A stretch of 64,000 nt of DNA from Squalus acanthias (taxonomy: Eukaryota). Within the stretch, counting starts at the first letter, position 1, and each line of letters begins with the position of its first letter. The notes under the pieces are model-generated. The model searched no databases and was not told the DNA's origin. It saw only the letters and a program-made list of their open reading frames with translations. Made by a program: the position numbers and the translations under genes. The stretch covers positions 153,824,001-153,888,000 of the forward strand of contig CM059431.1 of assembly GCA_030390025.1 (NCBI GenBank), read 5' to 3'. This document shows positions 3,975 to 42,262 of this stretch, piece by piece.

Positions 3975-6900
3975 ATCCCAGGGTACTCTGACCTTCTCAA
4001 GGCCCAATGGCGTTGGGTATTCTGATATTCGACAGCTTCATATGCCAGGATACTCAGATTGTCTCATTATCCGAATAGACCAGAATACACTGCGGACTAC
4101 AGATTCAATAGCCCAGGATACTCTGACCCACTATTTGACTATAACCCAGGTTAATTTAACCCTCTGCAAAGCGCAGTAGCCTTGGTTAGTTTGACCCTCT
4201 GCATAGCCCAAAAGCTCAGAGTACTCTGACTATCTTTACAACCCTTGGTAATCTGAATCATTACACGCACAATTGCACAGTTACTCGAACCCTCAATACC
4301 TGAGGGTACTCTGACCCTCTGAAGGCCCAATAGCCCAGGATACACCGGACTTCTGTATAGCCCTTGCAAAACTGACCCTCTGCAAGCCCTAAATACGATG
4401 GTATGCTGTCCATCTAAATGCCCAGTAGCCCAGAATACTCTGAATCTCTGTATAGCCAAGGGAACTATGACCCTCTGCAAAGCACAGAGTACACTGAGAC
4501 TCTGTCGGCCATAACGGACAGGACACGTTGTCCATTCACAGGCCCAATACCCAGGGTAATCTGACACTCTATATGGCCCGTGGTAATCTGGTCATCGACC
4601 GGCCCAATAAACCTATGTATCTAACCCTCTGTATTGCCGGGTTATTCTGTCCCTCTGCATAACCCTGGGTAATCTGACACTCTGCCTGCCCAATAGCCCA
4701 TGTTCGCTGACCCTCCAAAGGGGTAATAGGACTGAATATTCTGACACTCTGTATCGCCCAGCGTCCTCTGACCCTGTACAGGCAATATATGCCAGGATAC
4801 AGTGACGCTTGATCGGCCCAATTGCCCACAGTACTCTGACCCACTACCTGCTCAATCGTCCAGGTTACACTAACACTCCACATGCTCAATATCACAGGGT
4901 ACTCTGGGCCTGTACAGACCCACTAGCCCATAATACTCTAACATGCTGAAATGCCCATGGTATTCTGACACTCTGCATAGCCCAATATCCCGGGGTACTC
5001 CGATACTCTTTATAGCCCATGCTACTCTGACACATTACACGCGCAATAACCCAACTATTCTTTCCCACTGCCGCCTCTGTAACTCAGGGTTCCTTGACCC
5101 ACTACATGCCCAAAAGACCAGGGTTCACTTTACCTCTAGGGTCAAACAGCCCAGTTGCACTGACCCTCTACAGGCCAATAGCCCTGACTAATCTAACACT
5201 CTGTGTTAGCCTGGGTACTCTGACCCTCGGCAGGTCCAATTAAGAAGGTTACATTGACCCATTATAAGCCTAATTGCCCACGGTAATCTTCCCCTCAATT
5301 TGTTCAAAATCGCCCCGTGTGCCCTGAAGCTCCACAGGCCCGATAACTCAGGGTATTATGACCCATTATGCAGCTCAGGTTATTTGACCCTCTACAGACC
5401 CACTAACCCAGCTTACTTTATCACTCTGAACAGCGCATCGTATTCTGACACGCGTACCCCAAAAGCCTGAAGTTCTCTGAACCTCTTTAATACAGGTATT
5501 CCGCCATTATACATGTTCCACAGCCCAGGATACTCTGAACCTCTGAACAGCCCATGATACTCTGAACCTCTGAACAGCCCAGGTAATCTGACATTTTAGA
5601 CGCACAATAGCTCAGCTACTCTGACCCTCTGCAGGCTCAACAACTGAGGATTTTTTGACCCATTGTAGGTCCAATCGCACAGGGTACTCTTACCTTTCAG
5701 ATGCCCAAAAGCCTAGGATACTGTGAACCTCTGAATAGCCCAGGATACTCTGGACCACTGAATAGCCCAGGATACCCTGCCTCTCCGAATAGACCAGAGG
5801 ACACTGACTCGCTGCAGGCCCAATAGACCAGGGCAATTTGTCCTTTTCGAGGCCTAATAGCCCAGGTTACACTGACCATCTGCATAGCCCAGGTTAATCT
5901 GGTCCTCCCAATATCGCAGTTCACTCTGACCAGCTGCAGAGTCTATGTTACTCTGACCTTATAAATTACCCTGGTTAATCTGACACTCTGCATGCACAAT
6001 GTACTAGTTAATCTTACCCTCTACAGGCTTCATAGCCGAGGGTAATCTGGCACTCTGTGTAGCCCAGGGTACTCTGACACTCTGTAAAGCCAAGGGTACT
6101 CTGACACTCTGTGTAGCCCAGGGTACTCTGACACGCTGTGTAGTCTAGGATGCTATTTCACTCTGTGTAGTTCAGGATACTATGACACTTTGTGCAACCT
6201 AGGGTATTCTGACGCTGTTTGTAGTCCAGTTCATTCTGACGCTCTATCGTCCGGTAATTTCACGGTGCACTTACACTTTATAGCCCAAATTGCCCAGCGC
6301 ACAGTTACCCTCTACCTGCTCATTCGCCCTGGTTGCCCTGGGACACCACATTTCCACTATCTCAGGGTACACTGATCTTCAACAGACCAATTAGCCCAGG
6401 GTACTCTCACACTCTGAACAGCCCATGGGTTTCTGGCACTACATACCTCAAGAGCCCGAGTTATTCTGAAACTCATTCAAGCCCAGTTTACTCTGACACG
6501 TTAAACGTCCAACAGCTCAACTACTCTGACCCTATGCAGGCAGAATAGACCAGGGTAATCTATACCTCTAAAAGCCCAATATCGCCGGGTACTCCTAACC
6601 TCCAGTGGCCCAATTGCTCAGGATATTCTGAACATCTGAATTGCCCTGGATACTCTGTCTCTCTGGTTATCCCAGGGGACACTCACACTCTGCAGGCCCA
6701 ATAGCCCAGGATACGCTGTACCTGCAGGCACAAAAGCACAATATACCGTAATCCTCTGCAAAACCCAGGGCATCCTGACCCACATGTTCCTCTGACACGA
6801 TAGAGACGTAATAGCCCAGGGGACACAGACCCCCCGCAGCCTCAATATCTCAGGGTACTCAGAACAGATAAAGACCGATGGACCAGGCTACTATGATCCC

Positions 6901-8445
6901 TACAGTCCCATTAGCCATGCGGACTCAGATCCAACAGAGTTCCAGTAGTCCAGGCTACACTTTCCCTCTAACGTCCCATTAGCCCGGAGAAATCTGGCAA
7001 TCTTTATATGACAGGTTAGTCTGACACTATTTAGGCACAAAATTACGGGGTACATGGACACTCCTCCGTCTCAATGTCCCAAGGTAATCTGGCCCATGAC
7101 AGCCAATACCTCTCACAACCACTACAGGTCCAATAGCTCAAGGGCAATCTCCCCATCTGCGTAGCAGAGCGTACAGTCAGCCTCTACAGGCCCAATAGTC
7201 TTAGATTATTCTGACGCTCTGCACGCGCAATAGCTCAGGCTAAACTAGCCCGCTGCATACCCAATATCCTCATTACTCTAACCTTTTTCATAGCCCAGTG
7301 TCCTCTGACCATCTGCCGGCCCAATTTCTCAGGGTTTCTGACAAGCTCCGGGCCAATTGCTAAGAGACATTGATCCTCTCTATTGCCAAAGCTGCTCTAA
7401 CCGTCTACAGGCCCAATAGCCCAGAGTATCCAATCCCCTATATAGCCGATTGTAATCTGACCATACACAGTCCCAATAACCCAGGTTACACAGAAACTCT
7501 TCAGTCCAAATCGCCCAAGAGAATCTGACATCAGGCCCAATAGCCCAGGGTAATCTGTGCCTTTATATACCCCGGTAAACTCTTGTGCTTTAAGACCCAA
7601 TAACCCTGGGTACGCTGACAGACCTAATAGTCCAGGGTACTGTACCGCTCTATCGGCGATATATCACAGCGTATGCTGACCACGTACATGCCCAATAGCC
7701 TGGCGTGTGCTGATCCTCTACAGGCCCATTTACTCAGGGAACACTGATCCTCGACATAGCCCAGAGTAATCTGACACGACATAGACCAGGAGACTCAAAA
7801 CATCTACATACACAATAGCCCGTAGCCCAAAGTACTCTAGCCCTCTACAGGCACAATAAATCAGCGTACTGTGGTCCTTTGCGCATTCCAAGTTACTTGA
7901 ATCCTCAAAATAGCCCGTATTCGCTGTCACTCTAAAGACCCTATATAGCTCATGATATTCTGACCCTCTGTTGGTCCAATAGTGCAGGTTACTCTGAACC
8001 TATGCATAGCCCAAGGTAATCTGACCATTTCCAGGCTAATTAGCCCACGGTACGCTAAACCTCTTTACAACCAAGGGTACTCTGAACATCGACAGGCCCA
8101 GTAGCTCAGGGTACTTTGAGCCTCTGCAGGCCGAGTAGCCCAGGGTACTCTCAGGTTCTGTGCATCCCCAGTTACTTTGACCTTCCGCAGGCCCAATATT
8201 GCAGAACGTCTGATTCTCCAAGTAGCCTAATTTACTTTGACCTTTTGAAGGCCGAGTAGCCCAGGGTACTCTGAACTTCTGCCTAGCCCAGGATACTCTG
8301 ACCCTCTACAGGCCCAATAGCCCATGGTCCTCTGATCCTCTGCTTAGCTCAGTATTCTCTGAAACTCCAGAAGATCAACAGCCCAGGATACTATGACCCG
8401 CTGCTTACCTTAGGATACTGTGAACCTCGACAGATCCAATAGCCG
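3975..8445. repeat. Degenerate minisatellite array, 27/34-bp units (agcccagggtactctgaccctct(g/a)caggcccaat)
   Basis: Unit visibly reiterated over ~4.5 kb; near-perfect 27-bp copies at ~6050-6200. Confidence 0.9.
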
Positions 8446-8949
8446 AAGGCTATTAATCTATTAATCTAATTAATCTATGCCTGCACAATTCAATGTTATC
8501 CTTTTGATGCACTGTACAGATTTGGAGCTGATTAGAAAATACCTTGATATTGCTTATAATGTACAACTGCTTCGCTAGGAAGGCTCGAGTGATTCTCGCC
8601 TTAAAACCGATCTATGATCAATTAAAACGGTCTATGCTGATTTTGATGTTCTCTTATGGATATTAGGCCATTATTTTTGTTTTTATGTTAATATTTGGAA
8701 AATTTACAATATTTGAGACTGCATTGGAAATATCCTCAACACATTTTCTTTCAAACTGTGCATCCACATCCAAACGAGTAAGTACAATAACCAGATATTA
8801 TTTGTCAGAAAATCTGGAGAATTGCATTCAAATGCATAGCATTTACAGCACAATAACAGGCCATTTGTCCCAACTTGTTTATGCCGGAGTTTATGATCCA
8901 TCTGAGTCTCCTCCCACCCAATTTCAACTAAACAATACAACATATAATT

Positions 8950-19110: not shown

Positions 19111-19548
19111 CATAGAAACATAGAAACATAGAATCTAGGAGCAGGAGTAGGCCATTCGGCCCGTCGAGCCTGCTCCGCCATTCAATACGATCATGGCTGA
19201 TCATCCAAATCCAGTACCCTGTCCCTGCTTTAATCCCCACAGTACACATATCCCACCCTACCCCCGTAACCCCACGTATTTAATTCCCCCTAACATATCC
19301 CATCCTATCCCCATAACTCCACATATTTAATCCCCCCTAACACTAAGGGTCAATTTATCATAGCCAAATCAACCTAACCCACACATTTTTGGACTGTGGG
19401 AGGAAACCGGAGCACCCGGAGGAAACCCACGCAGACACGGGGAGAATGTGCAAACTCCACACAGACAGTCACCCGAGGTCAGATTCGAACCCGGGTCTCT
19501 GGCGCTGTGAGGCACCAGTGCTAACCACTATGCCACCGTGTTGCCCCC
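19111..19548 (-). mobile_element. tRNA-derived V-SINE (HE1-like) with CR1-type 3' tail
   Basis: Minus strand: A box ggtggcatagtgg, B box gggttcgaatct, V-domain tgtgtggagtttgcacattctccccgtg, (ttctatgt)n tail. Confidence 0.85.
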
Positions 19549-21850: not shown

Positions 21851-23071
21851 TTCTGAACTTTTCTGTGCCCCCTGTGAAGTAATTTGCCCCACTGCGCCGT
21901 GGATGTGCTCTGCAGTACATGACAACATTAACTGCACTTCAAAAAATAAGTAATTGAATGTAAAGCACTTTGGGACGTCCTGAGGTCGTGAAACCGCAAT
22001 GTGAATGCAATTTCTTTCTTGCTTTAGACTGCAATTCCCCGTGCTGTTGTCCGCATTGAAAATAAGTTTGAGACTGACACATTCCCGGGGGTTTCCTGTA
22101 TTCCCTGCCGTTCCTACCCAGCAGATGGCCACACTCTTACTGTACTTCAGAAACAAGAGTGATACTGATAATGGTGCAAAACGTCAAATTACATGGTCAA
22201 GTGTGCCTTCCGTTACCCTGAAACCTCCCTTAATGTTTCACTTTCCAATGAAGAGCACCAGATTTTGTCCGCAGCAGATTTTAAAAATATATATTCTAAA
22301 GTTATAAATTGGTATATTGTTACGCATTGGATACACTCTGGCAGAACTCTTGCACTTATTTGAAAGTTGCATTGAGGTTACCTTAAACGAGCACTTTTTG
22401 TGCTGAATACAAGAGTTTGCAAGTGTGTGGTGTTGTCTCGCAGGATTCAGTCAGGGGCCACTTATGTTTCTATTACTAATTTTAATATAGATCTTGTTCA
22501 ATACTTGCAGATGGTGTAAAAATGAAGTATTTATATCTTTCCTAACGTGATATATAGTTACCATTTAGGAAATTGAAAAAATAGATGTGCTAAAACTGAC
22601 ATATGAAATCAAGGTCTGTGTCAGTTAATACATACTTCTGAAATATCAGCTGCAATTGCACACTGAATTGAGGTAGATTCGGAGCTGTGGCGGAGCTGAG
22701 TGATGAAAGGGTACACGTTCACATGATATAAAAGGCAGCACCTCAGGTTGGTAAGACCGTAGAAAAATGAACTGTAGTCTAGGTTTAATTTCAAGTGTTA
22801 TAGAATAAAGAATTTCAGATAGTAATGTATTTATATAAACACTTAGTAAGACAGCCATTGGAGTAGTGTGTGTGCACAATTAAGCTATAGTCTTCAGGAA
22901 GGATATTCAGGTCTACAGAGCGTCAAATCAGATTTACTGGTATGCTAACTGATATCATCTAAACAGATACAAATGAAGACTTGGAAAGCTCCTTTTTCTC
23001 ATTAGAACCGCACATATTAAGAGTGATGTGATAGATATTTTTAAAATTATGAACTGTTGAGAAAAAATAGA

Positions 23072-23504
23072 TAGAAACATAGACATAGAAACTAGGAGCA
23101 GGAGTAGGCCATTCGGCCCGTCGAGCCTGCTCCGCCATTCAATACGATCATGGCTGATCATCCAAATCCAGTACCCTGTCCCTGCTTTAATCCCCACAGT
23201 ACACATATCCCACCCTACCCCCGTAACCCCACGTATTTAATTCCCCCTAACATATCCCATCCTATCCCCATAACCCCACATATTTAATCCCCCCTAACAC
23301 TAAGGGTCAATTTATCATAGCCAAATCAACCTAACCCACACATTTTTGGACTGTGGGAGGAAACCGGAGCACCCGGAGAAAACCCACGCAGACACGGGGA
23401 GAATGTGCAAACTCCACACAGACAGTCACCCGAGGTCAGATTCGAACCCGGGTCTCTGGCGCTGTGAGGCACCAGTGCTAACCACTATGCCACCGTGTTG
23501 CCCG
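23072..23504 (-). mobile_element. V-SINE (HE1-like), near-identical to 19111-19548
   Basis: Direct comparison; absent from the equivalent site in unit B (~28325). Confidence 0.85.
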
Positions 23505-31159: not shown

Positions 31160-32595
31160 TAAAATCACTAAGGAATTGGTATTCAGTAAAATAATGGGAC
31201 TCAAGGCGGATAAATCCCCTGAACCTGATGGCTTACATCCTAGGGTCTTGATGGAAGTGGCAGTAGGGATTGTGGATGCTTTGGTAATAATTTTACAAAA
31301 TTCCCTGGACTCAGCAAAGGTCCCGGCAGATTGGAAAACTGCTAATGTAACACCCTTATTTAAAAAGGGTAGTAGGCAGAAGGCTGGAAATTACAGGCCA
31401 GTTAGCCTAACATCTGTGGTGGGTAAAATTTTGGAGTCTATTATTAAGGAGACAGTAACGGAACATTTAGATAAACATAATTTAATAGGACAAAGTCAGC
31501 ATGGCTTTATGAAGGGGAAGTCATGCCTGACAAATTTGCTTGAGTGCTTTGAGGACATAAAGGACAGGGTGGATAAAGGGGAACCAGTGGACGTAGTGTA
31601 TTTAGACTTCCAGAAGGCATTCGACAAGGTGCCACATAAAAGATTATTGCTCAAGGTAAAACATCACTGGATTGGGGCTAATATTCTGGCATGGGTGGAG
31701 GATTGATTATCTAACAGGAAGCAGAGAGTTGGGATAAATGGTTCATTCTTGGACTGGGAACCAATAGCCAGTGGTATTCCGCAGGGGTCGGTGCTGGGTC
31801 CCCAACTCTTTACAATCTATATAACGATTTGGAGGAGGGGACCGAGTGTAACATATCAAAGTTTGCAGATGATACAAAGATGGGAGAGAAATTAGAAAGT
31901 GAGAAGGACATAAAAAACCTACAAGGGGATATAGACAGGCTGGGTGAGTGGGCGGGGATTTGGCAGATGCAATACAATATTGGAAAATGTGAGGTTATGC
32001 ACTTTGGCAGGAAAAATCAGAGAGTTATTATCTTAATGGCGAGAAACTGGAAAGTACTGCAGTACAAAGGGATCTGGGGGTCTTGGTGCAAGAAAATCAA
32101 AAAGCTAGTATGCAGGTGCAGCAGGTGATCAAGAAGGCCAACGGAATGTTGGCTTTTATTGCTAGGGGGATAGATTATAAAACCATCGAGGTTTTGCTGC
32201 AGTTATATAAGGTATTGGTGAGACCGCACCTGGAATACTGCGTACAGTTTTGGTGTCCATACTTAAGAAAATAAATACTTGCTCTCGAGGCAGTACAAAG
32301 AAGGTTCACTCGGTTAATCCCGGGGATGAGTGGTGGACAAATGAGGAGAGGTTGAGTAGATTTGAACTCTACTCATTGGAGTTCAGAGGAATGAGAGGCG
32401 ATCATATTGAAACATAAAAGATTGTGAAGGGGCTTGATTGGGTGGATGGGAACAGGATGTTCCCAAGGATGGGTGAAACTAGAACTAGGGGGCATAATCT
32501 TAGAATAAGGGGCGGCTCTTTCAAAACTGAGATGAGGAGAAACTTCTTCCACCAGAAGGTAGTAGGTCTGTGGAATTTGCTGCCCCAGGAAGAAG
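31160..32595 (+). mobile_element. CR1 LINE RT region, upstream part, interrupted by the LTR element
   Basis: NYRPVSLTS, VVYLDFQKAFDKVPH, FADDTK and LVRPHLEYC motifs. Confidence 0.9.
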
Positions 32596-34259
32596 TGTAA
32601 GGGATTCTGACCCTGCGTGTCTCGCAGCCTGTGAGATTCACGCGGCTCTGTGCAGCCTGTATGTCAGTGCGGGTCTAGGCCGTGTTGCCTGTTCTGGTCT
32701 CCAGCCAGTTCTGGGACACTAGACACACCTGTGAGTGGTTCGAATCACTCTCCCTTACGGTTCTAGACACTGGACTTTGATGCGAGAGCAGCAATAGAGA
32801 TGAAACTCATGTAGACTTGGTTTGAATGGTACGAAATGGAAAATCTTTATTGCATGATACTTAAGATTATGAAATACATGTCATAAGCACAGATTAATGA
32901 CAGTACAATCTTACAAACAGTTATATAGTCGATCTTAGGGAAACGAGGAACGAACGGCACAAAGTAAATAGGGGCACACATTACAAATATCCTTAATCCT
33001 TAAACCCTCCCCTATCAATATCTATCCTAAACTAGATTCGTAGGATCTCGAGACTCATGCTCACCACTCGTGATAACTCGGAGAAATTCCGAATAGCTGA
33101 TCGGATGTTTTTCACCGCAGCACCCACGTGTTGGTCAGGAGATCTCCTGGTCCCACTTGTTTCCTTGCTTCTGCTGCTCCGGCTAGCAGGCTGGAACGTC
33201 TGCTGTGATGAAGATCTGTATTGGTGGCTTTCACATTCCAGTTACTTTGGGCACAGTCCAGTTATCATCGATGCAATATGTTTCGTTATAAGTTCGAAGA
33301 AGTCTTCCTGGCGAGGAAAACTTGGCTAATCGACCTACAGGCGCGGTCGGGATTTACTGACCGTGGCGATGGATATGGTCTTCCTCTCTTCTCATCTCAT
33401 CTCATCTCATCTCTTCTCGGGCCTTTTGGTTCCGATACCGGTTACCAATATAGGTCTTCGTTACGCGACACGAGGTTGATCCGAACGGATCAGAAAGTTC
33501 AACAGTCTTTTCAGAAGAGGCAACAGGCAAGCAGAAGCCCAACTACGAGTACACAGGAGCAGCCACGAGGTTACGAATCGACCGGATAAGAGCACAGGAG
33601 CAGCCACGATGATAAGAGCAGCAAGAGAGAGAATGGACGGTTTGGAGCCTGCAATTATAGTGCAAAATCTTCCGTTTCCCGCCCAACTATAATGTCCATT
33701 CTTTTGTTTAAGGTCTGGCGCTCAAATGTCTTGTATGGGTGATCTCCGTTCTTAATGGGTTTCGGGGCTACTCGTAAATGTCTGAGTACCTGTTAATATT
33801 TCTCCCATTGTTAAATCGGTCGGTAATCTCCCTGGAGGGGTTTGGGGCTTCCAAGTGTCCTGTATAACTACCTGCTAACGGCTCTCTCATCGTAGAGTCG
33901 TTGGGATTTTACATATTAATGTCTTTTGGATGGGCCCTTGATTACTCGGTACAATGGCTTTCCTTTGTACCTGGGAGACCGATTTCAGTATCTATGTGTA
34001 TACTGCAAACCCATAATGTCTCGTGTATTATCTTCACTGTGCTGACTCTTAATCGATCTTGCACAAATGTTTATTGGAACGCCATCTTGTCTGCCTGTTG
34101 AAAAGTCCAGAATGTTCTGTCACGAGGTGCGGCGGCCATTTTACAGGCTGCTTGTGTCCACTTTAAACCTGCCAGCATTCTACTGAAATAAAAGCTGTTT
34201 GAACGAAACTCTGTGTTTTCTCCTTATTAATAAAATCGCGATATATTGCGAATTCTACA
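32596..34259 (-). repeat. 3' LTR (1664 bp)
   Basis: Direct repeat of 40299-41963; preceded on the minus strand by the PPT; AATAAA at ~32846-32851. Confidence 0.95.
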
Positions 34260-34260
34260 G

Positions 34261-34271
34261 TCCCTCCTGTT
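34261..34271 (-). promoter_or_regulatory. Polypurine tract
   Basis: aacaggaggga lies 1 nt before the 3' LTR TGTA on the minus strand. Confidence 0.7.
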
Positions 34272-34709
34272 GATGCGAATAACTCTGCTTATCGTATCAA
34301 AAATCATAGTGGTGAGCAATATTATCTCGATTTCTCTCCGAATCCAGCAAATTAATCCCATAATTTTAATTTAGCTAGGGTCTCTGTGTCGTCCTCATTT
34401 CCCAAGAAAATTACATTTTATATCACCGTAGGCATTATTTGCCCTTAAACTTACACCACTTGTTTTCCTTCCCGGCGTAACCAGGCCGATGCTTCTCGTA
34501 TCACCTGTATATTCATCTTTTATTCAGGGAAAGGAAAAACAGAACCCAAAACCAAACAATCATTTTTAACTGTAACACCATCACCAAAATAATCAACACC
34601 AACTCTTAAAACATGTCGAGTTTCCAACGTATTTACAATCTCTGAAAATCATGATTGAGTACAAACTTCCGCGGCGCACGTGGCGAGCGGGAGTGACGCC
34701 ATTTTCCGA

Positions 34710-37061
34710 TCACACGGTGCTTTCATCGTGCACGCGCACGTAACGTTCTCGCCACTCTCCCGTGTTTTCATGCTTGGTGAGGCGCTTGTCTCTTTTACAA
34801 TGTACGACCAATAGGTACACTACAATAAACACTTGGCATACGACTAAAATGTGGGAGGCTATTCTGATCCATGAAGGTACTTCAATATTAGTGAACAGAT
34901 TCCACCACGGTGGAACTACTATATCCAGAATGTCTGTTCCTATTTCGACAGTTTTCTGCTCTAATGTGTAAAAGTGTTTCTGTGACACCGCGACGGCTTT
35001 TAAAAGCTTGGTGAGGTGTTCAGGGAGAGGGGGAATGAGGTATCCAAAATGCGCGACGAATCGCTGCAAGTCGGTGAAATTCTCTTTTACTGTGAGATGA
35101 ACAGTGGATGGTTCAGGGATTGGGATAATTCGCTGTTGTGCTACTTGAACTTCCGCCCTGGGTTTAAAACAGAAACTGCTGTCACTCACCGGACACCGGC
35201 TACGGTTTCCATGCTGGTAGTGTTGCGCTGCAGTGGTAACACAATATGTTCCACCCCCGATGTATGCTACCTGCGGAGGCACATGATCTTGTGCCATTGC
35301 CTCCATGGTGCAATTCATGGACTTGGCGCCAGTCGTTCTGAACCCACACTGTGGTGTTAAAAAGGCATTCAAGTGCTGGGGGCACAGTATTATGTGTGCT
35401 CCCCTGCCACGACAACCAGAGAGATCTGTACCTGTCATCGTTTGCTCCCAGCGGATGACGTAGGGTGGAACCGCTGCATAGCGAATGTGGGCTACCCCCT
35501 GAATGACACCAATGTTCTCTACCCGATACACCGGGGCGGGCTTTGCTGTGTCGCCCAAAACCGGCATACGTAATACTATTCCCATAATAGTATGGTTTGA
35601 TCGTCCGCAGTCCACGGGGACTGGGTAAGCTTCTGAAGCTAGCCTGAGCTGGCATGGACTTAATGCGTTCTGAAAAGGGTGGAGCGCCCGCAGGTGTTTG
35701 TTACTTATCCAGGACGGAACCAAACCTTGTTTTAAATCCTCCAAATTACTGCGGCCCTCGCCCAGTAACCACGCCCCGTAAAGCACGCACACCTCGTTCT
35801 GCGCAGCTTGATCGGATGCATTCCGATCTTCCCTAATCAGGGCATTTACCGTCTTTGCATGTTTCTCCAACTCTGCTATAATTTCCTTTAAATGGAGGGT
35901 CATGGCTTGGTCCTCGTGTAGACCCGACCCTACCACTTTATTCTCATCTGTTAGAATGTCCTTTAATTGTGTCTTTAAACCATTAATCTGGGTCTGCAGC
36001 TCCACACTGTCTAGAGCGTAGACCACAGATGTACCCGTGTTAAAAGCGGTGAACGCATCGTTCACCAAACCCCTTCTTTGCCTCCCTGCTTGATTCAAAA
36101 CTTCCTGTGGTGCGGTGTACAAACTTGTTTTATCAATTTCCGCGAAATCGAATTCGTAAAATTGTCTGAACATCTTGGTCAACAGGACCTGGTACAACTG
36201 TTCCGTCTTTTTGGGGCACCACTCTGGTAACCGCACCTCAGTGAGATTTAAAATCACCGAGGCCACCGCGTAATGTACCCCCTGAAATAGTATCTGGTCT
36301 GTGGGGACCAGTACCAAACCATTCCCGGGTCCCTTACTAGTTTTAGGGCACCCTTCTTCCTCAGCTAGAACCACCGGAATCGTGGGCGGGGCTTTGCGTG
36401 GGCGCGTAATGAGCTCAGTGGCATTTACTGGGATCGGGGAGAATGGGGCTCCGCACCCCCTGGTGCTCGCATCCCACCTCATCCCCTGTCCGTTATGCTG
36501 CCATTGATTAATAAAAAATATGGAGATGCCTTTGGGGCAAACGTACTTTGACCCCCACATACATACATAAATTCCCTCATCCGGTTCCCACCATTTGTCC
36601 CAACAGACTTTCACTTGTCCGTCTGTCCCCGTAATTGTCCGATGGGTATTATTACCCAGTCGTTCCCACTCGACCGAAGAGTTCCTCATAGTTTTGCTCA
36701 GCTTTCGCAGCCACCACCATCGGCTCAATGGGACCTTCCCACTACAAGTCAAACAAATCCGTTTGCCGACGGTGACGCTGATCCTGGGTGCGATGATCCT
36801 TACTTTGGGGCACAGTAAAGAAGTCTCTTTGTAGGCAAACCCCGATGTGCTGGAATACTCCGTTGAGTTCGTTCCCAGCCATCCTGGCCACCTTCCCTTG
36901 TGGAAATAGGTGCTGGTCTCCTCTGCCTCCCGTCTTCCGGTCCCATCCACCGCGATGGGGGCCGTGTCCCCGGAACATCCAAACACCACGACATCCTTGG
37001 TGCGGCCTCGATAGGCCAATCCACATCCGATTGCCGCGAGCAATACTAGAATTCGTTCCAT
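34710..37061 (-). CDS. env: Envelope / class I fusion glycoprotein, ~783 aa from the signal-peptide ATG (ORF open from 37244)
   Basis: Strong-context aggATGG with signal peptide MERILVLLAAIGCGLA; Ig-like segment; furin site RQRR (36072-36083); fusion peptide and heptad repeat; Cys-rich region; TM helix IASHILVVCQVFIVVYLLVV; about ten N-glycosylation sequons. Confidence 0.9.
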   Translation of the reverse strand: MERILVLLAAIGCGLAYRGRTKDVVVFGCSGDTAPIAVDGTGRREAEETSTYFHKGRWPGWLGTNSTEYSSTSGFAYKETSLLCPKVRIIAPRISVTVGKRICLTCSGKVPLSRWWWLRKLSKTMRNSSVEWERLGNNTHRTITGTDGQVKVCWDKWWEPDEGIYVCMWGSKYVCPKGISIFFINQWQHNGQGMRWDASTRGCGAPFSPIPVNATELITRPRKAPPTIPVVLAEEEGCPKTSKGPGNGLVLVPTDQILFQGVHYAVASVILNLTEVRLPEWCPKKTEQLYQVLLTKMFRQFYEFDFAEIDKTSLYTAPQEVLNQAGRQRRGLVNDAFTAFNTGTSVVYALDSVELQTQINGLKTQLKDILTDENKVVGSGLHEDQAMTLHLKEIIAELEKHAKTVNALIREDRNASDQAAQNEVCVLYGAWLLGEGRSNLEDLKQGLVPSWISNKHLRALHPFQNALSPCQLRLASEAYPVPVDCGRSNHTIMGIVLRMPVLGDTAKPAPVYRVENIGVIQGVAHIRYAAVPPYVIRWEQTMTGTDLSGCRGRGAHIILCPQHLNAFLTPQCGFRTTGAKSMNCTMEAMAQDHVPPQVAYIGGGTYCVTTAAQHYQHGNRSRCPVSDSSFCFKPRAEVQVAQQRIIPIPEPSTVHLTVKENFTDLQRFVAHFGYLIPPLPEHLTKLLKAVAVSQKHFYTLEQKTVEIGTDILDIVVPPWWNLFTNIEVPSWIRIASHILVVCQVFIVVYLLVVHCKRDKRLTKHENTGEWRERYVRVHDESTV

Positions 37062-37244
37062 CCTTCCTTGGTTCCTGTGATCAGATAGAATGAGGTAGCC
37101 AGCCTCGCAAGAGTCTCTGGCTTTTGTGAAGGGTGAGCGGGTCCCCTGACCTCGCCTCACGTAAACTTCAACGTTCGCTGAATAAACTTCAACTAAACCT
37201 ATCTTTAAAGCTCCCATCATTTTATCGTTTTCTGTTAAAAACAC

Positions 37245-37345
37245 TACAATCTTAACCTTATTAAAACTATAAACTTAACCTTGAACTATTAACTTAAAAC
37301 TTAACCTTGAACTATAAACTTAAAACTTAGAACTATAACTTTACA
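37245..37345 (-). promoter_or_regulatory. T-rich short-repeat tract upstream of env (candidate splice-acceptor region)
   Basis: Repeated aacttaaccttgaactat units; minus-strand tttttaacag just downstream (~37232). Confidence 0.35.
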
Positions 37346-37372: not shown

Positions 37373-38482
37373 TTAAATTCTGAGAAGGCTGCTGCGAGCT
37401 CTTCCCGACGGTGGGAGGGTACTGACCCTTCCCTCTGATCTGCCGCAGCCTGTTACTGCTGCGATGTGGCCGGTCTGTATCTGGGTTATCTTAACCTTAA
37501 ACTTACGCCTTGGGGCAGTCTGGGGACATGACCACATCCTCCTGGGCTGGGGTTCTCTCCTTGACCTATGGGGAGTTGCTATGGGCGGGGTTTCCGTGAC
37601 GGACGGACCGGGTTCCGAGACTTCCATCGGGATGACCTGGGGTTCCATCACAGTCGCTGGCTCCGCCTCCGCTGACTCCGCCTCCCTAACCTCGGGGCTG
37701 GCAGTTCGTGGCTCCGCCCTGCTCGGCCCAGCAGGCAGCCCTTCACTCGTGATCTCTGCCTCCCCCGAGGACGGGACGTTCAAAGCGGGCGGCCACATCT
37801 CTGGGAGCCACACCGGTACTCTCTGTGCTCCCATAGCGGCTGGCCCTGCCTCCCCTAGCTCCTCCCTCCTGTCTTCGGGACCTGCAGCTTGTGTGTCCAC
37901 CCTGTGTGGATCTCTACCTACAGCCCCCATTCCCTCCAGACCGTTCCTCAGGAACCACCCGTCGTCATCACTATTCCCATCTGCACTATCCTCATCTGAC
38001 CCGGGTACCCTGAATTCTTCCTCATCTAACCCCCAATTCCAGAAAAACGCTGCATGATCGTCCGGGATGTCCCTTCCCCTGATGCAAGCTGCTATGCCTG
38101 CCTGTGTGCCTTGTGGTCCTACCTGGGGCTGTGCTTCCCCACTGGCGGGGTTTACCCCTGTGGTTTTCCCTTGCGCACCTGGCTGGTACAGTTTGCACTG
38201 GTTTGCATCCTCATACTCCCGGCTTTTGGCTACCCTGTAGGCTGCTTTTATCTCACTAAGCTGCGCTTCTAGCCTGAGCACGTCTAACTTTCCCATTGAT
38301 CGGGCGTTCTCCTCCCGCAGGGCCTGCTCTCTAAGCTGCCCTTCCAGCCCATCTATTTTCCCTATTAAGCGGGCGTTCTCCTCCCGCAAGGCCTGCTCTT
38401 TTAACCTGGCCTCCTCACCGCAGACCCCCTCCTGTGCGTGTCTTTTAAAAGGACACAGGTAGGCAGGCTGCGTGGGCTCTAG
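37373..38482 (-). CDS. ORF2 of unknown function in the pol position; in frame with gag after TGA-CTAG
   Basis: Open from the codon after the gag stop (LEPTQPAYLCPF...) to 37373; coiled coil followed by acidic/Pro-rich sequence; no PR, RT, RH or IN motifs. Confidence 0.7.
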   Translation of the reverse strand, partial: LEPTQPAYLCPFKRHAQEGVCGEEARLKEQALREENARLIGKIDGLEGQLREQALREENARSMGKLDVLRLEAQLSEIKAAYRVAKSREYEDANQCKLYQPGAQGKTTGVNPASGEAQPQVGPQGTQAGIAACIRGRDIPDDHAAFFWNWGLDEEEFRVPGSDEDSADGNSDDDGWFLRNGLEGMGAVGRDPHRVDTQAAGPEDRREELGEAGPAAMGAQRVPVWLPEMWPPALNVPSSGEAEITSEGLPAGPSRAEPRTASPEVREAESAEAEPATVMEPQVIPMEVSEPGPSVTETPPIATPHRSRREPQPRRMWSCPQTAPRRKFKVKITQIQTGHIAAVTGCGRSEGRVSTLPPSGRARSSLLRI

Positions 38483-40294
38483 TCATTGGGTACTATTAGA
38501 CGGTCCTGCGGCACCTACGGGGCCGGTTGCGACCGCCACCTGTCCACGTGCATTCAAGACCAGCTTGCGCATGGCTCCTAACACCACTTCGAGTTCGTCA
38601 GGAGGGGTGGGTGCCTTAGCTTCCTTAGCCGGGACAGGCGCCTGGGCTCGGACCGCGGGATTTTTATCCTTGGAATCCTTCCAAGGGTTCCTGCAATGCT
38701 TGCGCCAGTGCCCTGTCTTCCCACACCCGTAACAAGCATTACCTGCCTGTGGGGCGCGATTACCCTCCTGATGCCACTCTCTTTGATACGGGGCTGCGGG
38801 TCGTACCTCATGTACTCTTCCCTTAAGGGGACGTGTTGCCATACCCCTTATATTGCGATAACCTAACGTGAGTCGATTCAAGACCGACTCTTCCGTAATG
38901 TTGGGGTCATTGGGATCAAACCATGCTTTTGCCTGCTCTCTGACGGCTGGTAAACTGTTGGCTATTATGCACCTAAGCCAATGAGTTAAAGCGGTGCCTT
39001 CCACATCTTCGCTCTCGGGCGCACCTAGGCAGCTGCGCTCATATACTGGCCACAGCCTTTCGGCAAAAACCTTCGGGGGTTCTCCCTCCATCTGCACTGT
39101 CTGTCCCACTCTAGCAAACGGACCTTCGTCGTTCGCCCCCAACACTTCCAGGACCTCATTCTTTAATTCCTCATAACTCTTGGTTCCCCTCTTGCTCTCG
39201 CCTTAGAGACACTGAAGGACCGAGCTGTCTAATGAGAACAGCAGCATTTTTGCTGTCTCCCCATCATCGCAGCCGTTAATGGCTGCGTCTTGCTCAACTT
39301 CTCTGAAATGTACGGAAGGGTCGTCTGCCTCGGTCAGCTTCCGTACGTGATTTATCATAGCTCTCAGCTGATGTGAACTGTGAGGCAACACCAGCTGTCC
39401 GAGGAGATCCCCCGGTTCTTCCCCACCGTTTCTGCTTGGGCCCCTTTTAATACCCGTTACTGGATATTACGATCCCTTTCCTACTTCTTTTTCAATGGGC
39501 TCTTTTGTTTCTTCCATTGCTTCCTCCCTAACCCAGGTTTCTGAATAGCTGGGTGGCGCGGAGGGCGCAGTGGCTACTACTTCTTCTGCTTTACTTGGTG
39601 GGGATTTTCTAAATCTCTCATTTACTAGCGGCTGGTGCGCCGACGGATTGATAAGGCACACCATGCCGTTCGCATTGTTCACGGCCTTTTTGAGGTGCTC
39701 TATCTCCCTTTGGCAGGCGCTATGATCGGCTCCCTGAAACTTATCCTCAAGGGCCAACTTATATGCCGCCCTAACCCCCGTCAAGCTCTCTTCTTGAGTT
39801 CTTATCTGGGCAGCTTGGCGGTTACATCTTTCCTTTAACCTGCTCTCATTCAATTTTGCCTCAGTGACCTGGCACTCGAGATAATCTATCCTTGTTTTAA
39901 GGTGACTGGAGACTTCCTGGCTTTCTTGGTGTAACTCATTTAAATTCTTAATGAGCACCTCCCCTCCAGAAACCTTCTCATCCATTTCTCCCTCTAAATG
40001 ACTGATTCGAGCTACTAGCGCTGTAATGGTCTGGTTTGAAATCTGAACCTGCCTTTTGTAACACATAAGCCAGACTGCTTTCTCAAGTGTCTTTCTATGT
40101 TCTTTACTATCTGTCCACCTTTCAGCTGCCTCTAGTGGGCTTTTATCCGCTAACAATTCACTTATCCATTTCTTAGTTAGATTAACCTTTCCAAACACAT
40201 AATCCGCTATCTTTTCCTGCATAACATTTCGTACAGTCATTCCAAAATCTAACACACTACCCTCTCGCTGCCAGTGTCCTGCCGCGGTCGCCAT
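38483..40294 (-). pseudogene. gag: gag (~603 codons) with two in-frame TAA stops (39467-39469, 39203-39205)
   Basis: Three listed ORFs share one frame; coiled coil, PSAPPSY, MHR-like QMEGEPPKVFAERL, CCHC knuckle CYGCGKTGHWRKHC (38693-38734). Confidence 0.9.
40276..40293 (-). promoter_or_regulatory. Primer-binding site (tRNA-Ser-like, tentative)
   Basis: TGGCGACCGCGGCAGGAC begins 5 nt after the 5' LTR; resembles TGGCGTAGTCGGCAGGAT (recalled vertebrate tRNA-Ser complement). Confidence 0.65.
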
Positions 40295-40298
40295 TTTC

Positions 40299-41963
40299 TG
40301 TAAGGGATTCTGACCCTGCGTGTCTCGCAGCCTGTGAGATTCACGCGGCTCTGTGCAGCCTGTATGTCAGTGCGGGTCTAGGCCTTGTTGCCTGTTCTGG
40401 TCTCCAGCCAGTTCTGGGAACACTAGACACACCTGTGAGTGGTTCGAATCACTCTCCCTTACGGTTCTAGACACTGGACTTAGATGCGAGAGCAGCAATA
40501 GAGATGAAACTCATGTAGACTTGGTTTGAATGGTACGAAATGGAAAATCTTTATTGCATGATACTTACCATTATGAAATACATGTCATAAGCACAGATTA
40601 ATGACAGTACAATCTTACAAACAGTTATATAGTCGATCTTAGGGAAACGAGGAACGAACGGCACAAAGTAAATAGGGGCACACATTACAAATATCCTTAA
40701 TCCTTAAACCCTCCCCTATCAATATCTATCCTAAACTAGATTCGTAGGATCTCGAGACTCATGCTCACCACTCGTGATAACTCGGAGAAATTCCGAATAG
40801 CTGATCGGATGTTTTTCACCGCAGCACCCACGTGTTGGTCAGGAGATCTCCTGGTCCCACTTGTTTACTTGCTTCTGCTGCTCCGGCTAGCAGGCTGGAA
40901 CGTCTGCTGTGATGAAGATCTGTATTGGTGGCTTTCACATTCCAGTTACTTTGGGCACAGTCCAGTTATCATCGATGCAATATGTTTCGTTATAAGTTCG
41001 AAGAAGTCTTCCTGGCGAGGAAAACTTGGCTAATCGACCTACAGGCGCGGTCGGGATTTACTGACCGTGGCGATGGATATGGTCTTCCTCTCTTCTCATC
41101 TCATCTCATCTCATCTCTTCTCGGGCCTTTTGGTTCCGATACCGGTTACCAATATAGGTCTTCGTTACGCGACACGAGGTAGATCCGAACGGATCAGAAA
41201 GTTCAACAGTCTTTTCAGAAGAGGCAACAGGCAAGCAGAAGCCCAACTACGAGTACACAGGAGCAGCCACGAGGTTACGAATCGACCGGATAAGAGCACA
41301 GGAGCAGCCACGATGATAAGAGCAGCAAGAGAGAGAATGGACGGTTTGGAGCCTGCAATTATAGTGCAAAATCTTCCGTTTCCCGCCCAACTATAATGTC
41401 CATTCTTTTGTTTAAGGTCTGGCGCTCAAATGTCTTGTATGGGTGATCTCCGTTCTTAATGGGTTTCGGGGCTACTCGTAAATGTCTGAGTACCTTTTAA
41501 TATTTCTCCCATTGTTAAATCGGTCGGTAATCTCCCTGGAGGGGTTTGGGGCTTCCAAGTGTCCTGTATAACTACCTGCTAACGGCTCTCTCATCGTAGA
41601 GTCGTTGGGATTTTACATATTAATGTCTTTTGGATGGGCCCTTGATTACTCGGTACAATGGCTTTCCTTTGTACCTGGGAGACCGATTTCAGTATCTATG
41701 TGTATACTGCAAACCCATAATGTCTCGTGTATTATCTTCACTGTGCTGACTCTTAATCGATCTTGCACAAATGTTTATTGGAACGCCATCTTGTCTGCCT
41801 GTTGAAAAGTCTAGAATGTTCTGTCACGAGGTGCGGCGGCCATTTTACAGGCTGCTTGTGTCCACTTTAAACCTGCCAGCATTCTACTGAAATAAAAGCT
41901 GTTTGAACGAAACTCTGTGTTTTCTCCTTCTTAATAAAATCGCGATATATTGCGAATTCTACA
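40299..41963 (-). repeat. 5' LTR (1665 bp)
   Basis: Direct repeat of 32596-34259 with about ten differences by eye; followed on the minus strand by PBS and gag. Confidence 0.95.
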
Positions 41964-42262
41964 GAAGCTACATCATTAATTAATTTAAAACAGAAATAGA
42001 TAGTTTCCTAGAGGTAAAGGGAATTAGGGCTTACGGTGAGCGGGCAGGAAATTGCACATGAGGCTGAGTTCGGATCGGTCAGGGCCCTGTGGGTGGCGGA
42101 GCGGGCCCAGGGGCTGAGTGGCCGGGTCCTGCACCTACTTCTTGTGTTCTTTAGATTTCAGGTTAGGATCAGATCAGCCATGATCTTATTGAATTGCGGA
42201 GCAGGCTCGAGGGGCCGATTGGCCTACTCCTGCTCCTATTTCTTATGTTCTTATGTTCTTAT
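41964..42262 (+). mobile_element. CR1 LINE 3' end, continuing 31160-32595
   Basis: Resumes gaagctacatcattaat...; ends in the gcaggctcgaggggccg stem-loop and (ttcttatg)n tail. Confidence 0.85.

Follow-up and report, generated by a model that had tools for sequence, protein, structure and literature searches.

A pol-less, lokiretrovirus-like element of Squalus acanthias whose pol slot probably holds a chimeric pol remnant with a gag-like insert

Endogenous retroviruses (ERVs) that lack pol and depend on helpers are already well known, and the element described here is not new in kind. The closest analogue is the mouse IAP 1-delta-1 element which, according to the accessible part of its description (PMC6466679), is likewise a non-autonomous ERV with an internal deletion and an in-frame fusion of gag with a pol remnant; it also needs its enzymes in trans, and has spread successfully. 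With the lokiretroviruses, as presented in the available text and supplement of PMC7947760, our element shares an F-like Env with a RXKR/RXRR site, a coiled coil at the N-terminus of Gag, gag stops of the form TGA-CTA-G and a motif at the end of the integrase. The zebrafish BHIKHARI elements Bik-1 and Bik-2 are described, in the available portion of the preprint (bioRxiv 10.1101/2024.03.25.586437), as young pol-less relatives of lokiretroviruses, with a Gag made of coiled coil and capsid and mobilised in trans. In the accessible text of PMC7947760, Wang and Han report none of six chondrichthyan genomes as positive for lokiretroviruses; since their screen was based on the reverse transcriptase (RT), pol-less copies would escape it. 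Troyka (PMC12440569), Odin (PMC9040795) and errantivirus elements (10.1101/2023.10.26.564294) were considered as further comparators and rejected, as the parts of these sources available to us showed no fit or added nothing. No prior description of a gag-ORF2-env element was found in the literature searched, which did not extend to Repbase, Dfam or subscription journals, so that an earlier annotation is possible.

The window (the whole stretch of S. acanthias DNA that was analysed, 64,000 nucleotides) contains on its minus strand a 9.4-kb LTR-gag-ORF2-env element, delimited at 41963-32596 by blastn, global LTR alignment and the list of open reading frames, and inserted in a LINE-type RT remnant. 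The 5' LTR (40299..41963, minus strand, ~1665 bp, TG...CA) and the 3' LTR (32596..34259, minus strand) differ at 9 of 1665 sites by both blastn and global alignment (99.5% identical, 0.54% apart), so the insertion is young. With the mammalian rate of Wang and Han, the element would be about 1.2 million years old, and older should shark rates be slower. A 4-bp target-site duplication, GAAG, flanks it (32592..32595, plus strand; other copy at 41964-41967), and a polypurine tract precedes the 3' LTR (34260..34272, minus strand). The 18-nt primer-binding site (40276..40293, minus strand), which begins with TGG, is separated from the 5' LTR by 5 nt and overlaps the first gag ATG, is one that we take to be of the tRNA-Arg(UCG) type; no tRNA gene was found within the 64-kb window for comparison. 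The 6038-bp interior is wholly accounted for by gag (40294-38483), ORF2 (38482-37373) and env (37220-34710), and inspection of the element's reading frames and of Pfam matches found no protease, RT, RNase H or integrase core in it. The LTRs, primer-binding site, polypurine tract and target-site duplication being intact while these enzymes are absent, the element fits the description of a non-autonomous, pol-deleted LTR element and would depend on the enzymes of relatives. The LTRs are long (1665 bp) and contain a (TCTCA)n microsatellite and a direct repeat, GGAGCAGCCACGA. Elsewhere in the window lie a big degenerate tandem array with units of 27, 34 and 61 nt (4200-8450) and two 99% identical repeats (19112-19425 and 23069-23382) 3957 bp apart, possibly a young element or a duplication.

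The gag gene (38483..40294, minus strand, 603 codons) encodes, judging from the frame, its homologues and a model, a long N-terminal helix or coiled coil, a capsid and one CCHC knuckle. In the present copy it is interrupted by two in-frame stops, of which the one at 39467-39469 is absent from the best 40 of 595 differences to related copies, and the one at 39203-39205 occurs in no covering contig of related copies in the four runs compared. Gag is 50% identical to Gag-like proteins of Rhinoraja, whose ends coincide with the end of gag; the other named relatives are from Scyliorhinus, Heterodontus and Rhincodon, with Xenopus more distant. In the structure model of the 50%-identical skate Gag, a helix spans residues 68-183, and the best Foldseek matches of this model are the capsids of MLV, HIV and HTLV (probability 0.9-1.0, E 0.008 or weaker). 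As modelled, Gag has the N-terminal coiled coil and retroviral capsid fold that characterise lokiretroviruses. The first gag ATG (40292-40294, minus strand) lies in the primer-binding site, which itself encodes MATAAG, the residues with which the proteins P0006, P0010 and P0015 also begin. Another related Gag, P0005, carries its own tandem duplication of ~18 residues within the same coiled coil (aa ~115-150), and the length of the Gag helix is therefore readily altered. A word-index homologue search with the Gag N-terminus among longer proteins gave none from 2640 candidates, and scans of metagenome and viral contigs with the Gag alignment confirmed 0/98 and 0/26 pattern matches, respectively.

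The env gene (34710..37220, minus strand) is intact, with 836 codons, a RQRR cleavage site, a fusion part resembling paramyxovirus F and a possible Ig-like domain ahead of it, as read from the frame and the atlas search. The first atlas match is Fusion glycoprotein F0 (0.94, 206 of 256 features). A relation of Env to the F protein of paramyxo- and pneumoviruses (PF00523), as found in lokiretroviruses, is supported by this one method together with the RQRR site and the layout; sequence searches of Pfam and PDB returned no F-type match (PDB nothing below E 1.8), and a single-sequence structure model reached a pLDDT of 33. Ahead of the F-like part, Env has an extension of ~290 aa (36450-37220, minus strand) with a weak Pfam match to Ig_3 (aa ~140-219, E 0.51). 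A candidate env splice acceptor, a T-run followed by AG read from the letters of the locus, precedes the env ATG by 11 nt and is outside ORF2 (37232..37242, minus strand). The spacer between ORF2 and env (37245-37340), ahead of this candidate acceptor, is T-rich with short AAGTTT/AAGGTT-like repeats. The possibility that the ORF2 tail was retained for the sake of the acceptor was rejected, as the candidate lies 140 nt beyond the ORF2 stop.

The junction between gag and ORF2 (38479..38485, minus strand) is a gag stop in the readthrough context TGA-CTA-G, behind which ORF2 continues in frame. Several gag stops of lokiretroviruses are alike: in the supplement of PMC7947760, the Gag of both Loki-Ofa and Loki-Sau ends at TGA-CTA-G, and all four places at which TGACTAGG occurs there are gag ends, two of these being apparent ones. 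UGA-CUAG supports readthrough in vertebrate cells, according to the accessible parts of PMC4132726 and PMC13517186. A weak stem-loop, a possible readthrough stimulator, is predicted ~10 nt after the gag stop (38419..38472, minus strand) by a 151-nt fold with a z-score of -2.2, which 4 of 200 shuffles equalled. Judging from the context of the stop, occasional readthrough of TGA-CTA-G is the likely route by which ORF2 is translated, as part of a Gag-ORF2 fusion made at a low rate. This in-frame junction, which was missed by the sequence-only reading of the locus, would join ORF2 covalently to Gag.

ORF2 itself (37373..38482, minus strand) is a stop-free frame of 369 codons between gag and env, whose first ATG is at codon 63 in a weak context; the frame stayed open in none of 2000 base shuffles. 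Our main reading, to which we assign a probability of about 80%, is that ORF2 represents a chimeric pol remnant carrying an in-frame gag-like piece, probably expressed as a Gag-ORF2 readthrough fusion, in an element without enzyme genes. Three segments make it up. The first eleven codons (38450..38482, minus strand) appear to be the old start of pol, given their place behind the gag stop and contigs of run X15 which fit from 38451 upward. Residues 12-93 (38204..38449, minus strand) are, by alignments and profile, a gag-like coiled-coil insert without proline, 41% charged and ending in AAYRVA...EDA. Within it lies a tandem duplication of 69 + 75 nt, both in frame (38258..38401, minus strand), and the repeat of EQALREENAR that had been noticed from the letters is indeed present, at residues 29 and 52, in units of 23 and 25 codons. 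Residues 94-369 (37373..38203, minus strand) are the C-terminal tail of pol, beginning at the last SH3-like strand of the integrase (NQCK.Y), as indicated by blastp against the protein P0021 and by contig breakpoints; this part is low-complexity, acidic and proline-rich, and the FFWNW/acidic/proline-rich tail described earlier is there in the sequence. The gag-like echo thus amounts to ~82 residues (~22%) and the pol tail to 276 (75%). The sequence-only reading had ORF2 replace pol and derive from a gag duplication or recombination. It does sit in the pol slot without the pol enzymes, but 276 of its 369 residues are pol's own tail (P0021, E 2e-18); similarly, residues 12-93 are gag-like, and likely came by recombination, while ORF2 as a whole is not a duplicate of gag. 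A profile of the Gag N-terminus scores -3 bits against the tail, and most of ORF2 is non-homologous to Gag. For ORF2 1-200, a word-index homologue search returned 0 of 1095 candidates and the atlas search a best value of 0.86 with no family. An identification of ORF2 with the 'smc' gene of lokiretroviruses was rejected because, in the available text of PMC7947760, smc precedes gag; in the order smc-gag-pol it is the counterpart of the N-terminal coil of Gag, not of ORF2.

The assignment of the tail to pol comes from a search of 1.84 billion representatives, in which one of 27 matches, P0021 (266 aa), had its best stretch in ORF2. From NQCK on, P0021 aligns with ORF2 94-368 through to the end (blastp E 2e-18, 29% identity), and its first 49 residues form a GPY-type SH3-like domain of the integrase C-terminus, residues 12-49 matching SH3_Tf2-1 (PF24626) at E 0.0022, below the Pfam cut-off. 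The homology of the tail to the integrase end is drawn from this one protein, and the integrase, which in lokiretroviruses is close to CGIN1, is represented by just its last residues in the element and by 49 aa in P0021. Three published Pol ends of lokiretroviruses, taken from PMC7947760, carry a similar W.H.NQ.K motif. Pol in the lineage of ORF2 and P0021 seems to bear a low-complexity tail of 220-275 aa (P0021 aa 44-266, ORF2 aa 94-369), with short conserved blocks such as RS..EPQPR..W and TGCG.

Independently of P0021, contigs from related copies mark both ends of the insert. In three of four runs (X3, X20 and X9, record 29) they cease fitting at 38204, directly in front of the NQCK codons; in run X15 they do so at 38451, eleven codons past the gag stop. 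The breakpoints were taken from the best-supported rows of contig ends, beside which 470 further loose ends exist, and long-range joints and GATC insertions exclusive to run X3 were excluded as apparent ligation-library artefacts. The left breakpoint, seen in one run, may lie at codon 11 or somewhat after it, up to ~10 codons further on. Several long related contigs are 8-15% diverged, compared with 1-3% for most, as would fit a second subfamily, probably one with pol. These diverged contigs ending at the breakpoints, together with P0021, are the hints of a helper; the data searched contained no whole pol-bearing helper.

The simplest origin would be that reverse transcription of a pol-bearing genome switched templates twice, into and out of a related gag RNA packaged with it, which would leave codons 1-11 as the old pol start, residues 12-93 as the gag-like insert and residues 94-369 as the pol tail. 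Where gag is intact, a small percentage of ribosomes would read through its stop and produce a Gag-ORF2 fusion of ~973 aa. By virtue of its Gag moiety this fusion could be incorporated into particles as a substitute for Gag-Pol, bringing no enzymes, and the element would be mobilised by the RT and integrase of its pol-bearing relatives.

The ORF2 stretch is present in 20 of 24 listed runs, from 7 studies and under 4 organism labels; no RNA run was among those listed. All 30 bins of the element were covered in each of four runs, and the deleted form makes up an amplified family in its own right. One contig of run X9 runs without a gap from the gag end over the stop into the insert (38266-39108), differing at 18 places; in another, insert and tail are joined across a 63-nt skip that keeps the frame. 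Among the best 40 of the 595 differences between copies, a selected sample from which the counts for ORF2, env and gag do not make up a dN/dS, synonymous changes account for 14 of the 18 in env codons (p 1e-6 relative to site frequency) and for 1 of 7 in gag; three differences fall in ORF2, two of them non-synonymous, one synonymous and none in the insert. On these counts, purifying selection seems to act on env in this family without pol.

By analogy with what is reported for IAP 1-delta-1, the open frame would most likely act in cis, with ribosomes kept moving through the old pol slot and the RNA kept stable or preferentially packaged. A role in cis or in translation and neutrality, taken jointly, are put ahead of a role of the second coiled coil at the protein level, roughly two to one. 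Neutrality would mean that ORF2 is debris, a single in-frame recombinant amplified by chance whose frame is open because the family is young, and we regard this as a real possibility, though well short of even odds. The LTRs are only 0.54% apart and the copies a few percent, and 4.2% of point changes in ORF2 create a stop, so that an open frame in a single copy is weak evidence of selection; with ~1 stop expected per copy, it is not rare. The predominance of non-synonymous changes among the three listed for ORF2, as opposed to env, points the same way. Neutral decay accounts less well for the retained readthrough context and for the length changes of ORF2 in the copies (the 63-nt skip, a 39-nt repeat and a gap counted at 21 letters), which are all multiples of three, whereas indels of 1-2 nt are listed in non-coding parts.

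Slightly less likely again, in our view, is selection on the fusion of Gag, coiled coil and tail as a protein, whose second coiled coil would pair with those of Gag (the element's own or a helper's) and bias assembly or packaging towards this element, or damp the helper. The insert, the 69/75-nt duplication and the ORF2 indels all keep the frame, the fusion protein of IAP 1-delta-1 acts in cis according to the available text of PMC6466679, and the two duplication units differ by 6 synonymous and 6 non-synonymous changes over 23 codons (dN/dS 0.24, p 0.025). This last signal, from 23 codons, may nevertheless predate the capture and stem from the donor gag, P0005 being duplicated in the same helix; three indels are few, and pol-bearing relatives may be the source of some contigs; moreover, of the Gag helix the insert holds just the final third. 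It is unlikely, in our estimate, that a satellite retrovirus has converted its slot for Gag-Pol readthrough into a novel structural protein composed of Gag, a second, selected coiled coil and a disordered tail. If true, this protein of the satellite would co-polymerise with helper Gag and win packaging, or dampen the helper, while the satellite provides an intact F-like envelope.

As for the insert, the claim that ORF2 holds a diverged echo of the Gag coiled coil stands above chance, for residues 12-93 only. There, a profile built from 15 N-terminal segments of Gag gives 21.1 bits, which none of 1000 shuffles of each of three kinds reached; the score is 21.0 bits without the element's own Gag and 16.8 bits without P0005, P0030 and P0031 (0/1000 in nine controls), and for comparison the heptad region of env scores 1.6-2.8 bits. 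The profile is incompletely independent, because the query of the homologue search included ORF2. The pairwise alignment with shuffled controls that had been proposed gave a local score of 70, reached by 0 of 2000 full, 1 of 2000 heptad-register and 2 of 2000 10-aa-window shuffles. By pairwise, profile and hhalign alignments, the matching part of Gag is its coiled coil at residues ~120-190 (39725..39937, minus strand). The register originally given for the parallel (LVARISHLEG) is not the best one: in the top-scoring alignments IGKIDGLEGQL stands opposite Gag KTRIDYLECQV (aa ~132-143) and not opposite LVARISHLEGEM (aa 93-104); the closing NQC, taken for an echo of HSAC in Gag, is instead the start of the integrase-tail match. 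An hhalign comparison of the insert with Gag gave E 0.00043 on the AAY(K/R)xA block, at a probability of just 33.8%. The whale-shark Gag fragment P0031 has EQALKQENSRL at the position of EQALREENARL in ORF2, and the blocks EQALxxENxRL and AAY(K/R)xA follow one another in the same order and spacing in the insert and in shark Gag fragments, e.g. P0031; this order and spacing is the most specific support for a gag origin. A complex prediction for Gag aa 85-212 with ORF2 aa 12-93, run without alignment, gave no answer (score 0.01).

We consider it very probable that the insert is of gag origin and came from a sibling gag lineage; its divergence from the element's own gag is too great for a recent copy. 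Resemblance by convergence, the insert being an unrelated coiled coil from a host mRNA or arisen de novo, is improbable. Such a source would agree with the lack of DNA similarity between ORF2 and the element's own gag (the best plus/plus blastn match being 14 nt), with the pairwise scores of 47-52 for three skate Gag proteins, which 207-336 of 1000 window shuffles reached, and with the 20.8 bits, about equal to the Gag profile, that the generic coiled-coil model Rab11-FIP3 reached as the top scorer among 24,736 in Pfam. That figure, however, is the best among 24,736, while the Gag profile was a single prior hypothesis; heptad-keeping shuffles never matched it (0/1000), and convergence would also have to place AAY(K/R)xA at the matching distance from EQALxxENxRL found in shark Gag fragments. 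A second, diverged gag-derived gene wholly replacing pol and self-expressed as an accessory or restriction-like protein would suit the Gag-like segment and the position in the pol slot, but is very improbable given that 75% of ORF2 aligns to the pol tail, that no usable ATG precedes codon 63 and that the junction breakpoints are present in related contigs.

With ORF2 read as a chimeric pol remnant, the element looks like a lokiretrovirus by its Env, Gag layout, junction signal and integrase end, the defining feature, RT, being absent here. The lokiretroviruses of PMC7947760 possess pol, and three Pol tails published there are short after NQ.K, whereas here pol is absent, the tail is ~220-275 aa long and Env has a long N-terminal extension. 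As far as the available descriptions go, mouse IAP 1-delta-1 is betaretrovirus-like, has no env and has lost part of gag, while the present element retains both genes; its remnant lies behind a readthrough stop, without the integrase core and with a foreign gag-like insert. BHIKHARI, the nearest pol-less relative, has Gag only in the accessible part of its description, to which the present element adds env as well as a pol remnant that looks translated. The reason for which remnant frames stay open in defective ERVs is a question that so far rests mostly on mouse IAP, and a young family of many copies offers a natural dN/dS test of it. What is unusual is the combination, in a cartilaginous fish, of a lokiretrovirus-like element which has retained gag, env and the readthrough signal while a gag-like piece has taken, in frame, the place of its enzymes.
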